NCBI RefSeq assembly: GCF_055900595.2
Contig: NZ_CM148325.1
Strand: one strand, 5' to 3'
Length of the DNA stretch: 64,000 bases
Below the pieces are notes generated by a model. That model made no database searches. It saw nothing but the letters and a program-made list of their open reading frames with translations, and was not told the DNA's origin. Shown one piece after another: positions 3,818-9,009 of this stretch. A program made the translations under genes and the position numbers. Position 1 is the stretch's first letter; each line of letters opens with the position of its first letter.

Positions 3818-3843
3818 TTCCCCTTAATCCAGCAAACATAAAA

Positions 3844-3880
3844 GCCAACCTTAAGAACTTAAGGTTGGCTTAATTTTGCT
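3844..3880 (+). terminator. Putative rho-independent terminator of adiC (palindrome gccaaccttaag/cttaaggttggc followed by a T-rich run)
   Basis: Near-perfect inverted repeat with a T-rich tail immediately 3' of the adiC stop; the right arm overlaps the PmrA box listed next. Confidence 0.4.
3858..3874 (+). promoter_or_regulatory. PmrA (BasR) box CTTAAG-N5-CTTAAT upstream of eptA
   Basis: Sequence cttaaggttggcttaat matches the direct-repeat PmrA consensus YTTAAK-N5-YTTAAK; lies ~45 bp upstream of the preferred eptA start. Confidence 0.5.
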
Positions 3881-3920: not shown

Positions 3921-5564
3921 ATGTTGAAGCGCCTACTAAATAGACCCTCTTTGAATTTACTCGCCTGGCTATTGTTGGCCGCTTTTTATATCTCTATCTG
4001 CCTGAATATTGCCTTTTTTAAACAGGTGTTGCAGGCGCTGCCGCTGGACTCGCTGCATAACGTACTGGTTTTCTTGTCGATGCCGGTCGTCGCTTTCAGC
4101 GTGATTAATATTGTCCTGACACTAAGCTCTTTCTTATGGCTTAATCGACCGCTGGCCTGCCTGTTTATTCTGGTTGGCGCGGCTGCACAATATTTCATAA
4201 TGACTTACGGCATCGTCATCGACCGCTCGATGATTGCCAATATTATTGATACCACCCCAGCAGAAAGTTATGCGCTGATGACACCGCAAATGTTATTAAC
4301 GCTGGGATTCAGCGGCGTGCTTGCTGCGCTGATTGCCTGCTGGATTAAAATCAAACCTGCCACCTCGCGCCTGCGCAGTGTTCTTTTCCGTGGAGCCAAT
4401 ATTCTGGTTTCTGTGCTCCTGATTCTGCTGGTCGCCGCACTGTTTTATAAAGACTACGCCTCGCTGTTTCGCAACAACAAAGAGCTGGTGAAGTCCTTAA
4501 GCCCCTCTAACAGCATTGTTGCCAGCTGGTCATGGTACTCCCATCAGCGACTGGCAAATCTGCCGCTGGTGCGAATTGGTGAAGACGCGCACCGCAACCC
4601 GTTAATGCAGAACGAGAAACGTAAAAATTTGACCATCCTGATTGTCGGCGAAACCTCGCGGGCGGAGAACTTCTCCCTCAACGGCTACCCGCGTGAAACG
4701 AACCCGCGGCTGGCGAAAGATAACGTGGTCTATTTCCCCAATACTGCGTCTTGCGGCACGGCAACGGCAGTTTCAGTACCATGCATGTTCTCGGATATGC
4801 CGCGTGAGCATTACAAAGAAGAACTGGCACAACATCAGGAAGGCGTGCTGGATATCATTCAGCGGGCGGGCATAAACGTGCTGTGGAATGACAACGATGG
4901 TGGCTGCAAAGGCGTCTGCGATCGCGTGCCTCACCAGAACGTCACTGCGCTGAACCTGCCTGGTCAGTGTATCAACGGCGAATGTTATGACGAAGTGCTT
5001 TTCCACGGGCTGGAAGAGTACATCAATAACCTGCAAGGTGATGGCGTAATTGTCTTACACACCATCGGCAGTCACGGCCCGACCTATTACAATCGCTATC
5101 CGCCACAGTTCAGGAAATTTACCCCTACCTGCGACACCAACGAGATCCAGACCTGTACCCAAGAGCAACTGGTAAACACTTACGACAATACGCTGGTCTA
5201 CGTCGACTATATTGTTGATAAAGCAATTAATCTACTGAAAGAACATCAGGGTAAATTTACCACCAGCCTGGTTTATCTTTCTGACCACGGTGAATCGTTA
5301 GGTGAAAATGGCATCTATCTGCACGGTTTGCCTTATGCCATCGCCCCGGATAGCCAAAAACAGGTGCCGATGCTGCTGTGGCTGTCTGAGGATTATCAAA
5401 AACGGTATCAGGTTGACCAAAGTTGCCTACAGAAACAGGCGCAAACGCAACACTATTCACAAGACAATTTATTCTCCACGCTATTGGGATTAACTGGCGT
5501 TGAGACGAAGTATTACCAGGCTGCGGATGATATTCTGCAAACTTGCAGGAGAGTGAGTGAATGA
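3921..5564 (+). CDS. eptA: Lipid A phosphoethanolamine transferase
   Basis: 547 aa from the MLKRLL start (six-frame ORF begins at 3876, but the PmrA box position favours 3921); N-terminal TM helices plus a sulfatase-like periplasmic domain; stop overlaps the basR start. Confidence 0.85.
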
Positions 5565-6229: not shown

Positions 6230-6238
6230 TTGAATCTG

Positions 6239-7330
6239 ATGCGTTTTCTGCGCCGACCAATATCGCTGCGCCAACGGCTGATATTGACCATCGGGGCCAT
6301 TTTGTTGGTGTTTGAGCTGATCAGCGTCTTCTGGCTATGGCATGAAAGTACCGAGCAGATTCAGCTGTTTGAGCAGGCGCTACGCGACAATCGTAACAAC
6401 GATCGCCACATCATGCGTGAGATCCGCGAGGCGGTCGCCAGCCTGATTGTCCCTGGCGTCTTTATGGTCAGCCTGACGCTATTTATCTGCTATCAGGCGG
6501 TACGCCGCATCACCCGCCCGCTGGCGGAGCTGCAAAAAGAGCTGGAAGCGCGCACCGCCGACAACTTAACGCCCATTGCCATTCACAGCGCCACCCTCGA
6601 AATCGAAGCGGTGGTTTCAGCGTTAAACGATCTGGTCAGTCGCCTGACCAACACGCTGGATAACGAAAGGTTGTTTACCGCTGACGTCGCGCACGAACTG
6701 CGAACGCCACTGGCGGGGGTGCGTTTGCATCTGGAACTGCTGGCGAAAACGCATCACATTGATGTAGCACCGTTAGTGGCACGACTTGATCAGATGATGG
6801 AGAGTGTCTCCCAGCTACTGCAACTGGCGCGTGCCGGACAGTCATTTTCTTCCGGTAATTATCAACATGTAAAACTGCTGGAAGATGTCATTCTCCCCTC
6901 GTATGACGAACTCAGTACCATGCTCGACCAGCGCCAGCAAACCCTGCTATTGCCAGAGAGCGCCGCCGACATCATCGTTCAGGGTGATGCAACCCTGCTG
7001 CGGATGTTATTGCGAAACCTGGTAGAAAATGCCCATCGTTACAGCCCGCAAGGCAGCAACATTATGATTAAGCTGCAAGAAGATGGCGGAGCGGTCATGG
7101 CCGTTGAAGATGAAGGACCGGGTATTGATGAGAGTAAATGCGGGGAGTTGAGTAAAGCGTTTGTACGTATGGACAGCCGTTATGGCGGGATTGGTCTGGG
7201 GTTAAGTATTGTCAGCCGCATTACACAGTTGCATCACGGGCAGTTTTTCCTGCAAAACCGGCAAGAGACTTCTGGCACACGGGCCTGGATACGGCTGAAA
7301 AAAGATCAGTACGTGGCAAACCAGATATAA
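6239..7330 (+). CDS. basS: Sensor histidine kinase BasS/PmrB
   Basis: 363 aa from the ATG at 6239 (six-frame ORF begins at 6230); two TM segments, H-box AHELRTPLA, HATPase region with GIGLGLSIV. Confidence 0.85.
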   Translation: MRFLRRPISLRQRLILTIGAILLVFELISVFWLWHESTEQIQLFEQALRDNRNNDRHIMREIREAVASLIVPGVFMVSLTLFICYQAVRRITRPLAELQKELEARTADNLTPIAIHSATLEIEAVVSALNDLVSRLTNTLDNERLFTADVAHELRTPLAGVRLHLELLAKTHHIDVAPLVARLDQMMESVSQLLQLARAGQSFSSGNYQHVKLLEDVILPSYDELSTMLDQRQQTLLLPESAADIIVQGDATLLRMLLRNLVENAHRYSPQGSNIMIKLQEDGGAVMAVEDEGPGIDESKCGELSKAFVRMDSRYGGIGLGLSIVSRITQLHHGQFFLQNRQETSGTRAWIRLKKDQYVANQI

Positions 7331-7395
7331 AGAAAGCTGCTGACCACCAGCACGCTGAACACGGTAGTTAAACTTTCATAAACACGGTTTTTCAT
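7306..7395 (-). CDS. pmrR: Small membrane peptide PmrR (29 aa: MKNRVYESLTTVFSVLVVSSFLYIWFATY)
   Basis: Translated by hand from the minus strand (not in the six-frame track); GGAGG Shine-Dalgarno 8 nt upstream; single hydrophobic helix; preceded by a PmrA box; 3' end overlaps basS antisense by ~25 nt. Confidence 0.6.
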   Translation of the reverse strand: MKNRVYESLTTVFSVLVVSSFLYIWFATY

Positions 7396-7439
7396 TGCAC
7401 TCTCCTCCGTTAACCTGGAGGAGAGTATGCGCGTCAGAG

Positions 7440-7456
7440 ATTAAGTGAACCTTAAG
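7440..7456 (-). promoter_or_regulatory. PmrA (BasR) box CTTAAG-N5-CTTAAT upstream of pmrR
   Basis: Minus strand reads cttaaggttcacttaat, a match to the PmrA direct-repeat consensus, ~45 bp upstream of the pmrR ATG. Confidence 0.5.
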
Positions 7457-7465
7457 AGTTCAATT

Positions 7466-7494
7466 GGCCTGATAAGACAGCATCACATCAGGCC
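7466..7494 (-). terminator. Putative proP terminator hairpin (ggcctgat...atcaggcc)
   Basis: 8-bp perfect inverted repeat immediately 3' of the proP stop. Confidence 0.4.
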
Positions 7495-7506
7495 ATCCGT
7501 TTCAGC

Positions 7507-9009
7507 TTATTCATCAATTCGCGGATGCTGCTGCACCAGGCGGGTACGTTTCGCCTGCAAATCGGCAATCTCGTGGTCAATATCATCGATTTTCTGCTCG
7601 ATATTATCGTAATGCTCGACGAGAATTTCCTTCGCTTCCTGTATATCTGACGCCGCCGGTGTCGCACCTTTCAACGGACGATTCGCCGTCTCTTTCATGG
7701 TTACGCCGGTGATTAAACCAACCACCGCCACTACCATCAGGTAATAGGCAGGCATCATCAGATTCTGCGAGCTTTCGACCAGCCAGGCCGCCAACGTTGG
7801 CGTCAGACCGGCAACCAGCACCGAAATATTAAATGCCGCCGCCAGCGCGCTGTAACGGATATGCGTCGGGAACATCGCTGGCAAGGTAGAAGCCATAACG
7901 CCCGTAAAGCAGTTAAGGATCACCGCCAGCATCAGTAACCCGGCAAAAATCAGGCCGATGACGTTACTGTTAATCAGAATAAACGCCGGGATCGCCAACA
8001 CAAACAGTGCAACACTACCAAGTAGCACAAACGGACGACGGCCAAAACGGTCACTCAGCAAGCCCATCACCGGCTGGACAAACAGCATACCGATCATAAT
8101 GGCGATAATAATTAGCACCCCGTGGTCTTCGGAGTAATGCAGGTTATGCGACAAATAACTCGGCATATAGGTCAGCAACATGTAGTAAGTCACGTTGGTG
8201 GCAATTACCAGACCAATACATGTCAACAGGCTGCGCCAGTATTTAGTGGCAATCTCTTTAAACGAGACTTTCGGGCCATCCTGCAAACCTTCGCGGTCGC
8301 CCTGTTCCAGTTTATCAACATGCTGCTGGAACGCCGGAGTTTCTTCCAGCGCATGGCGCAGGTAAAGCCCGATAATCCCTAACGGCAGAGCAATAAAGAA
8401 CGGAATACGCCAGCCCCAGTCGAGGAAGTTCGCTTCGCCGACAATGGTCGAAATTAACACCACCACGCCCGCACCCAGCACAAACCCGGCAATAGAACCG
8501 AAGTCCAGCCAGCTGCCCATAAAGCCACGTTTACGGTCAGGGGAGTATTCCGCAACAAATATCGACGCCCCGGTATATTCACCGCCGACCGAGAAACCTT
8601 GTGCCATCTTACAGATCAACAGCAGAATCGGTGCCCAAATACCAATCGTGTCGTAGGACGGTATTAAGCCAATACAGAACGTACTGATCGACATAATCAC
8701 AATAGTGATAGCGAGGATCTTCTGGCGACCATATTTATCGCCCAACATACCAAAGAAGAGTCCGCCAAGCGGTCGAATCAGAAAGGGAACGGAGAAAGTG
8801 GCAAGTGCAGCAACCATCTGCACGCTGGGGTCAGCCCCCGGGAAAAAAACTTTACCTAATGCGTAAGCAACAAAACCATAAACACCAAAATCGAACCATT
8901 CCATTGCATTACCCAGTGATGCTGCGGTAATGGCTTTACGCAGTTTACCGTCATCAATAATAGTGACATCACGAAGGGTAATCGGTTTTACTTTTTTCCT
9001 TTTCAGCAT
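7507..9009 (-). CDS. proP: Proline/glycine betaine:H+ symporter (MFS osmosensory transporter)
   Basis: 500 aa from MLKRKK; 12-TM MFS protein with a C-terminal coiled-coil tail (EAKEILVEHYDNIEQKIDDIDHEIADLQAKRTRLVQQ). Confidence 0.9.
   Translation of the reverse strand: MLKRKKVKPITLRDVTIIDDGKLRKAITAASLGNAMEWFDFGVYGFVAYALGKVFFPGADPSVQMVAALATFSVPFLIRPLGGLFFGMLGDKYGRQKILAITIVIMSISTFCIGLIPSYDTIGIWAPILLLICKMAQGFSVGGEYTGASIFVAEYSPDRKRGFMGSWLDFGSIAGFVLGAGVVVLISTIVGEANFLDWGWRIPFFIALPLGIIGLYLRHALEETPAFQQHVDKLEQGDREGLQDGPKVSFKEIATKYWRSLLTCIGLVIATNVTYYMLLTYMPSYLSHNLHYSEDHGVLIIIAIMIGMLFVQPVMGLLSDRFGRRPFVLLGSVALFVLAIPAFILINSNVIGLIFAGLLMLAVILNCFTGVMASTLPAMFPTHIRYSALAAAFNISVLVAGLTPTLAAWLVESSQNLMMPAYYLMVVAVVGLITGVTMKETANRPLKGATPAASDIQEAKEILVEHYDNIEQKIDDIDHEIADLQAKRTRLVQQHPRIDE

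Follow-up and report, generated by a model that had tools for sequence, protein, structure and literature searches.

A conserved hairpin around the pmrR Shine-Dalgarno sequence of Escherichia coli overlaps the predicted -10 element of the PmrA-dependent promoter

A perfect palindrome lies directly upstream of pmrR, the small gene that converges on basS (pmrB), in the 64,000-nucleotide stretch of contig NZ_CM148325.1 (assembly GCF_055900595.2) analyzed here, which as a whole is called the window. One arm of the palindrome contains the Shine-Dalgarno (SD) sequence of pmrR, and the question raised by the locus is in which RNA this palindrome folds and what it does there.

The gene itself is known. 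A first-pass annotation had translated by hand a minus-strand open reading frame (ORF) that was missing from its six-frame track; the ORF listing of the window contains it at 7306..7395 (- strand), with 29 codons and the translation MKNRVYESLTTVFSVLVVSSFLYIWFATY, and its absence from the track is explained by the length threshold alone. RefSeq annotates the ORF as pmrR (b4703); the product, a 29-aa small membrane protein that modulates LpxT activity, is identical to WP_000797657.1 and is matched by the NCBIfam equivalog model NF033224 over residues 1-29 of 29 with 74.2 bits (cutoff 30, E = 5e-21). According to the ORF listing and RefSeq the convergent partner basS extends over 6230..7330 (+ strand), and the antisense overlap of the two 3' ends, previously put at about 25 nt, is exactly 25 nt long (7306..7330). 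A scan with the PmrA consensus YTTAAK-N5-YTTAAK yielded two zero-mismatch matches in the 64 kb of the window, one at eptA (3858-3874, + strand) and one, CTTAAGGTTCACTTAAT, at pmrR (7440..7456, - strand), both correctly oriented before PmrA-regulated genes, which bears out the perfect PmrA box already noted for pmrR.

Both the E. coli gene pmrR found here and its PmrA-dependent promoter have been described before. The 3' overlap of pmrR and pmrB has been reported (PMC8129183, PMC8004244), the PmrA box of pmrR was found to be functional by deletion and PmrR's inhibitory effect on LpxT is backed by genetic evidence (PMC8129183), and translation (Ribo-RET) and membrane location (fractionation) of PmrR in E. 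coli were reported as well (PMC11429745). The ORF and all of these features were thus known, and the connection that had been suggested between a two-component system (PmrA/PmrB) and a small membrane peptide (PmrR) is correct and previously published. Gene, PmrA box and feedback loop are textbook matter for the polymyxin-resistance field, to which the original observation adds nothing. Plasmid-borne PmrR is harmful in the absence of stress (PMC11429745), so that tight control of PmrR is needed; in pmrR and proP-pmrR transcriptional reporters, induction by low Mg was not significant (PMC11429745), which counts against the model set out below. The palindrome is a different matter: neither the SD hairpin nor its overlap with the -10 element is discussed in the published E. 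coli pmrR work examined.

Regarding the 80 related loci retrieved, 53 had the pmrR layout (downstream of pmrB, convergent, overlapping, with a PmrA box upstream), all of them from genera of the Enterobacteriaceae, and recognisable PmrR homologues were present in about 35 of these 53; the remaining loci were without a PmrA box at the site. Salmonella was absent from the 80 loci returned, and its sequence was taken from the Rfam consensus.

In the window, an inverted-repeat search places the palindrome at 7399-7426, with arms of 10 nt each (100% complementary) and a loop of 8 nt. Read on the pmrR strand, the 5' arm ACTCTCCTCC (7417..7426, - strand) is an anti-SD that overlaps the predicted -10 hexamer and discriminator of pmrR, the loop AGGUUAAC (7409..7416, - strand) varies in sequence and length between genera, and the 3' arm GGAGGAGAGT (7399..7408, - strand) contains the SD GGAGG at 7408-7404, 8 nt from the pmrR ATG. 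The first-pass annotation had recognized a perfect palindrome around the SD, which is confirmed, except that the helix is one pair longer (10 bp) and its coordinates had been off by one. The window holds about eight perfect inverted repeats of this kind (10 bp, loop of 3-10 nt), against 0.5 expected from first-order Markov simulations; the palindrome is non-random and similar to other functional hairpins of the window. An RNA with both arms folds on the pmrR strand with -19.9 kcal/mol (z = -4.0), a stability equaled by none of 200 shuffles.

Compensatory changes accompany the conservation of the hairpin, which we take to be genuine and selected for. Across about 15 genera of the Enterobacteriaceae (52 distinct sequences), 82% of the cells were paired compared with 72.8% in shuffles (0 of 500 reached the observed value) and 39-52% with the partners slid, and the covariation score was 0.285 versus 0.148 in shuffles (0 of 500), figures that overstate independence, the 52 sequences being phylogenetically related, and that somewhat favor the helix, since its 13 pairs were specified by hand. 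The pair 35-56 may serve as an example, being AU in 17, CG in 17, GC in 6 and GU in 6 of the 52 sequences. RNAalifold on a MAFFT alignment recovered just 6 core pairs. Across the aligned loci, the 3' arm of the hairpin is always the SD.

The strand on which the structure acts is less clear-cut. The + strand folds equally well (-20.3 kcal/mol, z = -4.6), and with all 13 pairs counted there is little to choose between the strands (82.0% of the cells pair as pmrR-strand RNA, 83.3% as basS-strand RNA), which would suit a hairpin that stabilizes or terminates the eptA-basRS (pmrCAB) mRNA within its 3' UTR. Against this, the core 8 pairs pair in 92.3% of the cells as pmrR-strand RNA versus 86.1% as basS-strand RNA, and they admit U.G when read as pmrR-strand RNA, the + strand counterpart of which would be A.C (34 G.U versus 8 A.C cells). 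This preference for the pmrR strand is modest, and the constraint to which the SD is subject in any case accounts for part of it. The first-pass annotation had gone further in suggesting that the palindrome also terminates basS, for which no support was obtained: the sequence after the stem (+ strand, AUGCGCGUCAG; - strand, UGCAAUGAAAAAC) contains no U-tract in either case; a terminator scan flagged no intrinsic terminator at the hairpin for basS or proP; the published Term-seq tables (PMC7815308) list no basS-strand 3' end here, only one on the pmrR strand; and many genera carry, beyond the PmrA box, a canonical T-run terminator that serves the pmrCAB strand. On these grounds a basS terminator was rejected.

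Published constructs bear on the same strand. The behavior of the pmrB constructs of Xu et al. that extend to +86, an end point that cuts the hairpin in two (window 7416), is very unlike that of the constructs to +103 or +126, which hold the whole hairpin (PMC8004244), in line with a function in the pmrCAB 3' UTR. However, the half-life was unchanged, the mRNA level was highest with the ORF-only construct although this conferred no resistance (PMC8004244), and the truncations also reassemble the pmrR promoter step by step. That the truncations in fact rebuild this promoter is part of a possible explanation for a published puzzle. A role in the pmrCAB 3' UTR moreover leaves the exact coincidence of the hairpin with the SD and -10 of pmrR unexplained, and we consider it quite improbable.

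The coincidence with the -10 element follows from the alignment, which suggests a -10 hexamer, CATACT (7424..7429, - strand), 10 nt downstream of the PmrA box. The hexamer has the form (G/C)A(T/C)ACT, in which A2 is present in 48, A4 in 51 and T6 in all 52 of the 52 aligned sequences, and the spacer between box and hexamer is 10 nt in 47 of them. A2 is near-invariant though its pairing partner pairs in just 22 of 52 sequences, and the pairing partners of the hexamer vary. Its overlap with the hairpin 5' arm (7426-7417 against 7429-7424), together with the conservation of the hairpin, is what the analysis adds to the published picture, the assignment as a -10 element being drawn from sequence.

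This geometry has consequences for the transcription start, for which the published E. coli pmrR papers give no +1. At pbgP, the pmra-box replaces the -35 element and occupies approximately -37 to -21, and the pbgP scaffold has 8 nt between box and -10 (PMC10570014). If the 3' end of the pmrR box likewise were at -21, transcription would start at 7419, and counting 7 nt from the -10 hexamer would give about 7417; given a spacer of 8 nt at pbgP versus 10 nt at pmrR, the predicted start is uncertain by a few nt. From the overlap of the 5' arm with the -10 and the pbgP-like geometry we infer a PmrA-dependent start zone at 7415..7419 (- strand), which would leave the anti-SD arm untranscribed. With a start 7 nt after the end of the hexamer, three pairs or fewer would be kept in 47 of 47 distinct sequences.

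The first-pass annotation had placed the hairpin in the 5' UTR of pmrR's own mRNA, where it would occlude the ribosome binding site (RBS). Sequestration as such is possible in any RNA with both arms, in which the predicted unpaired probability of the SD has a mean of 0.09 and a median of 0.025 (53 species sequences). The PmrA-dependent mRNA is another matter, as its predicted start leaves on average about 1 nt of the 5' arm across species. The predicted probability that the SD is unpaired is 0.09 in the long RNA versus 0.44-0.49 when the RNA begins at the predicted start (Wilcoxon p = 3e-10), the values for E. coli being 0.00 versus 0.69-0.83. An auto-inhibitory 5' UTR that blocks translation of the PmrA-dependent mRNA until opened would agree with the SD lying within a stable stem, with the conservation and covariation of that stem on the pmrR strand, and with the Rfam STnc630 model, whose 5' end is upstream of the box and which draws the hairpin within the RNA. 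The bounds of that model, however, go back to an intergenic candidate of 166 nt whose Northern result was 'nd' and are not mapped ends, and an auto-inhibitory leader needs a start at or upstream of 7427, which would leave 13 nt from box to +1 and no room for a -10 and would be incompatible with class-II-like PmrA geometry (PMC10570014). The 5' arm shares positions with the conserved A2/T6 hexamer, and with PmrA active, PmrR is both translated and functional, so that an auto-inhibitory leader is very unlikely, slightly more so than a role in the pmrCAB 3' UTR.

RNA with both arms can come from further upstream. The co-oriented upstream gene in the window, and a likely source of read-through RNA, is proP (7507..9009, - strand; ORF listing and RefSeq); the upstream gene is proP in Escherichia and Citrobacter and uvrB in most other genera. 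The proP stop codon is 2 nt from the PmrA box in C. amalonaticus, and in Kosakonia that of uvrB falls within the box itself. In the window, a repeat search finds a REP-like inverted repeat, TGGCCTGAT-n13-ATCAGGCCA (7465..7495), in the gap that separates the stop codon of proP from the PmrA box; it is variable among Escherichia species, and no Term-seq 3' end is recorded at it in the tables of PMC7815308. A published RNA 3' end does exist at MG1655 position 4332116 (+ strand there), with 1708 reads in LB at OD 2.0 (PMC7815308, supplementary file 1), which RefSeq coordinate mapping places at window position 7395 (- strand), 4 nt beyond the stem on the pmrR strand. It is the sole 3' end listed within roughly 300-500 nt on either side (4331800-4332599, PMC7815308), and Adams et al. 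2021 (PMC7815308) list it in the supplementary tables alone, as 'internal, pmrR'. The same study reports a Rho-dependent region at MG1655 4332468, with a coverage of 248/32 without bicyclomycin versus 400/443 with it (PMC7815308, supplementary file 2); this published pmrR-strand Rho-dependent termination peaks antisense to basS, at approximately window position 7043. The 3' end is compatible with trimming after Rho termination. For Salmonella in LB, Hfq co-immunoprecipitation reads from this intergenic region were found. Read-through RNA must exist, because the upstream stop codons abut or enter the box and because a 3' end after the stem implies an RNA with both arms.

The 3' end could mark 3'-end formation of proP alone, the inclusion of the SD being incidental. 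The hairpin would then be a mere 3'-end former (terminator or exonuclease block) of the upstream mRNA, and its overlap with SD and -10 a by-product of compactness with no role for PmrR. The position of the Term-seq end just after the stem and of the Rho region downstream agree with this, as do Citrobacter and Kosakonia, in which the upstream genes abut the box and no other terminator is present. Yet the register to ATG and box is also kept in genera (for example at loci L040, L053, L057 and L022) in which a strong canonical terminator hairpin sits just upstream of the box, which would make a second 3' structure redundant there; the upstream gene switches between proP and uvrB while the hairpin travels with pmrR; and the 3' arm is always the SD. 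We therefore hold a mere 3'-end former to be unlikely, if the least so of the three alternatives considered.

The strength of the hairpin was also compared with the upstream structure or terminator. A compensation, with a stronger SD hairpin where an upstream terminator is absent, was rejected, as the two were uncorrelated (rho = 0.07, p = 0.63); this is contrary to a simple 'insulation need' prediction and weighs on the model set out below. By eye, strong hairpins are seen at the loci where no terminator would fit (L007, L073, L060, L062), in a sample that is small and phylogenetically clustered.

The reading we prefer, at somewhat better than even odds, is that the hairpin belongs to the upstream RNA (proP/uvrB), in which it hides the pmrR RBS and forms a stable 3' end. 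The pmrR promoter would be activated by PmrA, with the PmrA box in place of the -35 element, and the SD would pair with a segment that doubles as -10/discriminator of this promoter. Phosphorylated PmrA and RNA polymerase would start at about 7419-7415 and give an RNA without the anti-SD arm, which would have an unstructured leader of about 20 nt and be translated. RNA derived from upstream (proP or uvrB) would carry both arms, the hairpin would hide the RBS, and PmrR synthesis would require activation by PmrA. Left untranslated, the read-through RNA would be subject to Rho termination in the pmrR/antisense-basS region and then be trimmed back to the hairpin, which may thus come to serve as the proP mRNA's stable 3' end. 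More tentatively, with a little less than an even chance of being right, the promoter can be said to carry its own translational gate, its -10/discriminator being an anti-SD that is transcribed only from upstream, such that read-through is silent, Rho-terminated and trimmed. If true, a 28-nt element sets start-site-specific translation, the 3' end of the neighboring gene and the protection of basS from convergent transcription. A hairpin that ties PmrR synthesis to the origin of transcription could explain the tight shut-off of PmrR without stress (PMC11429745).

Compared with PmrR of Salmonella and E. coli (NF033224), no difference exists at the level of the gene: it is the same 29-aa, membrane-associated LpxT inhibitor, overlapping pmrB and preceded by a PmrA box. 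Kato et al. 2012 reportedly described a 'reciprocal control' involving PmrR. The Rfam family RF02052 (STnc630, 'Enterobacterial sRNA') matches 7464..7299 (- strand) with 182 bits (threshold 55) over model positions 1-166 of 166, and its consensus structure already includes this hairpin. The family is filed as an sRNA, whereas its span here comprises the PmrA box, the promoter and the entire translated pmrR ORF; as the original STnc630 candidate was an Hfq co-immunoprecipitation cluster with the Northern result 'nd', a discrete non-coding RNA was rejected, and the 'sRNA' label covers what is in reality a protein-coding gene and the promoter in front of it.

As with the Rho-dependent 3' ends that are trimmed to a stem-loop (PMC7815308), the end lies a few nt past the stem, a U-tract is absent and a bicyclomycin-sensitive region is found downstream; that the 4332116 end is linked to proP and to SD sequestration is our own proposal. 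The class-II-like promoters of PmrA (OmpR/PhoB family) at pbgP, ugd and pmrCAB have two hexamers with a 5-nt gap that replace the -35, and a -10 close by, likewise at pmrR; pmrR differs from the pbgP scaffold in its spacer to the -10 (10 nt versus 8 nt) and in a discriminator that doubles as anti-SD.

A parallel in logic is the protection of IS10/Tn10 from external promoters, for which PMC13181058 cites Davis, Simons and Kleckner 1985. In IS10, the region where translation begins reportedly pairs with a segment that lies upstream of the element's own start, and translational silence is restricted to RNA that reads through. At pmrR the anti-SD likewise lies upstream of the predicted own start, and upstream-derived RNA with both arms is predicted to be silent. 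Unlike the transposase gene of IS10, pmrR is a chromosomal regulon member, its anti-SD would be the promoter's own -10/discriminator, and its hairpin would also mark the 3' end of an upstream mRNA.

The gene layout of the window comprises eptA-basR-basS on the plus strand and proP (7507..9009) on the minus strand. The 29-aa antisense ORF of the first-pass annotation is confirmed by the ORF list, which holds an identical peptide at 7306..7395 (-), and by its 25-nt overlap with basS, which ends at 7330. Of 5426 complete E. coli genomes, 5412 carry a 601-bp region of the locus, annotated there as pmrB, pmrR ('LpxT activity modulator PmrR') and proP; the K-12 locus tag of pmrR is b4703. The peptide scores 74 bits against NCBIfam NF033224 (cutoff 30). 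It belongs to the PmrR family, and everything that could be tested agrees with this. The start of basS (= pmrB) at 6230 is a TTG in both PGAP and the ORF list, yielding 366 aa and adjoining the basR stop; the K-12 record has 363 aa. Feedback between the two-component system and a small peptide, also suggested in the first-pass annotation, is an already published topic: Kato et al. 2012, cited in the E. coli pmrR papers, reportedly dealt with the PmrA/PmrB-PmrR feedback loop. The gene, its PmrA box and most of the submitted finding are likewise already known from the E. coli literature, which covers the pmrR-pmrB overlap and the lpxT-dependent polymyxin sensitivity of a pmrA-constitutive strain after deletion of the PmrA box (PMC8129183), as well as a translation-initiation profiling signal for pmrR, induction of its RNA in low Mg2+, membrane association of PmrR, and harm from both its loss and its excess (PMC11429745).

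A perfect inverted repeat is present upstream of the ORF, as had been described, although one base away from the coordinates first assigned to it: its 10-nt arms lie at 7399-7408 (3' arm, holding the Shine-Dalgarno sequence, SD) and 7417-7426 (5' arm, anti-SD) on the minus strand, with a loop of 8 nt. The folding energy of RNA with both arms is -19.9 kcal/mol (z = -4.0). The window has about 8 sites with comparable perfect repeats, where a first-order Markov model predicts about 0.5. A BasS scan with one genome per species returned 80 loci, 53 of which share a common layout 3' of basS (52 distinct sequences aligned): PmrA box, about 10 nt, (G/C)A(T/C)ACT, a stem-loop with the SD as its 3' arm, ATG, and a PmrR-like ORF overlapping basS. 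Every one of these loci places the ATG 57-62 nt from the start of the box, and the genera are Escherichia, Citrobacter, Klebsiella, Raoultella, Kluyvera, Kosakonia, Phytobacter, Pseudocitrobacter, Trabulsiella, Yokenella and Pluralibacter, with relatives.

Covariation was counted for a 13-pair helix on the 52-sequence alignment. Paired cells amounted to 82% (shuffled 72.8%, slid partners 39-52%) and the covariation score was 0.285 (shuffled 0.148, slid partners 0.046-0.088), with 0 of 500 shuffles reaching either observed value, but kinship among the aligned sequences makes these statistics overstate independence. Double changes occur in eight helix pairs (e.g., pair 35-56: AU 17, CG 17, GC 6, GU 6), and RNAalifold recovered the helix core independently. 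The core eight pairs contain 34 G.U versus 8 A.C, i.e., wobbles are tolerated on the pmrR strand, and pair in 92.3% on that strand versus 86.1% on the basS strand; over the full 13 pairs the strands do not differ. The simplest reading of this alignment, despite the kinship, is an RNA helix that would form on the pmrR strand.

The minus-strand order is CTTAAGGTTCACTTAAT (PmrA box, 7456-7440), 10 nt, CATACT, CTCCTCC-AGGTTAAC-GGAGGAGAGT-GCA-ATG. The perfect PmrA box claimed for the small ORF was borne out by a consensus search: YTTAAK-N5-YTTAAK has two perfect matches in the 64 kb, before eptA and before pmrR, both correctly oriented. In the aligned sequences the hexamer 10 nt past the box has A2 in 48/52, A4 in 51/52 and T6 in 52/52, whereas positions 2 and 4 are paired with their helix partners in only 22/52 and 33/52, so that the conservation is that of a -10 element and not of the stem. 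According to a cryo-EM study of the PmrA activation complex, the pmra-box takes the place of the -35 element and lies four base pairs downstream of the PhoB box (-41..-25), which puts it at about -37..-21; in K. pneumoniae, the pbgP footprints stop at -19 to -22. The pmrR promoter fits the PmrA class-II-like type, and its +1 is predicted at 7419 (box rule) or about 7417 (-10 rule). We infer this start from promoter geometry, not from mapping, and the mechanism proposed in the first-pass annotation hinges on its position. The eptA box (3858-3874) is accompanied by a perfect palindrome, AAGCCAACCTTAAG-AA-CTTAAGGTTGGCTT, plus a T-rich run at 3842-3871 (+), about 25 nt past the adiC stop. This palindrome is apparently the terminator of adiC, and the upstream half-site of the box falls within its 3' arm. 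Terminator hairpins abutting the PmrA box also occur before pmrR in Klebsiella, Pluralibacter, Pseudocitrobacter and other loci.

For a start at hexamer end +7, the RNA would keep on average 1 nt of the 5' arm (7426-7417) and at most 3 pairs in 47/47 distinct sequences. The predicted probability that the SD is unpaired has a mean/median of 0.09/0.025 over all species in RNA from the box and is 0.44-0.49 in RNA from the predicted start (Wilcoxon p = 3e-10); in E. coli the values are 0.00 and 0.69-0.83, the short leader folding at only -2.4 kcal/mol. Since the predicted +1 falls within or just past the 5' arm, the hairpin would most likely be absent from pmrR's own messenger. An auto-inhibitory 5' UTR of the pmrR mRNA, as originally proposed, is therefore improbable, if the start derived from promoter geometry holds.

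Nor does the palindrome appear to terminate basS, as had also been suggested: a U-tract past the stem is absent on both strands, and the terminator scan does not flag the site. Xu et al. (PMC8004244) reported colistin MICs of 0.5, 4 and 16 for pmrB(BL21) constructs ending 86, 103 and 126 bp past the stop, respectively, a series that they ascribed to the pmrB 3' UTR. The truncation ends allow an alternative reading, since they step from no pmrR promoter and half the hairpin (+86, window 7416) to the whole hairpin and the -10 with the box absent (+103, window 7433) and then to the -10 with the box complete (+126, window 7456). The ORF-only construct had the most pmrB mRNA and no resistance (PMC8004244); resistance thus did not follow the mRNA level. 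An origin of the MIC series in pmrR expression is therefore at least as plausible as one in the pmrB 3' UTR, although the host's own chromosomal pmrR tempers this reading. We consider a role of the hairpin in the basS 3' UTR improbable.

The gene directly upstream of pmrR is always oriented toward it. Escherichia and Citrobacter have proP in this place; most other genera have a gene ending ...LHQLRELFIAAS, which we take to be uvrB. In C. amalonaticus (loci L007 and L073, about 4230) the proP stop lies 2 nt before the PmrA box, and in three Kosakonia species (L039, L060 and L062, about 4210-4230) the uvrB stop lies inside the first half-site; this leaves no room for an intergenic terminator, and upstream transcripts must cross promoter and hairpin. 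A stem without a U-tract, an RNA 3' end a few nucleotides on and a Rho-dependent region downstream are the usual sign of Rho termination followed by trimming to a protective stem. Term-seq of E. coli K-12 (LB, OD600 about 2.0; Adams et al. 2021) placed a pmrR-strand 3' end with 1708 reads at 4332116, the sole one listed for 4331800-4332599 on both strands; by coordinate mapping this position corresponds to the A of the start codon of pmrR, 4 nt past the stem. The bicyclomycin data from this study place a region of strong Rho-dependent termination on the pmrR strand, antisense to basS, with its peak at 4332468 (about window 7043 (-)) and an upstream/downstream coverage of 248/32 without and 400/443 with bicyclomycin. 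RNA with both arms thus does exist; it has its 3' end at the hairpin and is part of a transcript family that is Rho-terminated slightly downstream, so that Rho normally curtails convergent transcription into basS. That the hairpin is only the 3'-end structure of the upstream gene is nevertheless unlikely, since it is kept in a fixed ATG register in genera where the box already adjoins a strong canonical terminator hairpin and accompanies pmrR whatever the upstream gene. A REP-like inverted repeat at 7465-7495, between proP and the PmrA box, varies among Escherichia species; the published Term-seq records no 3' end there, so it is apparently not the proP terminator.

We lean towards a picture in which PmrA-started RNA is translated and upstream-derived RNA is hairpin-silenced, Rho-terminated and trimmed. 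PmrA-P at the box would recruit polymerase to an RNA starting within or just past the 5' arm, with its SD open, whereas RNA derived from proP or uvrB would carry the anti-SD, form the hairpin and close pmrR to ribosomes; being untranslated, it would be a Rho substrate, and trimming would halt at the hairpin. More tentatively, the pmrR promoter may contain a built-in translational gate, with a -10/discriminator that is anti-SD and transcribed only from upstream, and that would also set the neighbour's 3' end and protect basS. If the mechanism is true, PmrR would be strictly PmrA-dependent, matching its dose sensitivity, and convergent transcription into basS would be limited. A point against the mechanism is the lack of correlation between hairpin strength and upstream structure.

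Rfam RF02052 (STnc630) scores 182 bits at 7464..7299 (-), and the pmrR SD hairpin is part of its consensus structure. STnc630 was first reported as a candidate of 166 nt in the proP/basS intergenic region, recovered by Hfq co-immunoprecipitation from Salmonella (27 reads vs 1 in the control; Northern 'nd'). This 'enterobacterial sRNA' is the pmrR coding sequence together with its PmrA box and promoter; the locus matches the family as an RNA, yet contradicts its implied non-coding nature. The consensus structure also contains a terminator-like hairpin, TGCTGGTGGTCAGCA then GCTTTCTTTA, located at 7338-7352 (-) in transmembrane-segment codons of pmrR; the published Term-seq list has no 3' end at this hairpin. 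A description of the relation of the SD hairpin to the pmrR promoter and the proP 3' end was not found in the literature searched, and the arrangement may, hypothetically, be a variant of a known logic. Although silencing is hypothetical in pmrR, the likeness is to IS10, in which read-through RNA is said, from the work of Davis et al. 1985, to be silenced by an upstream sequence that pairs with the translation start.
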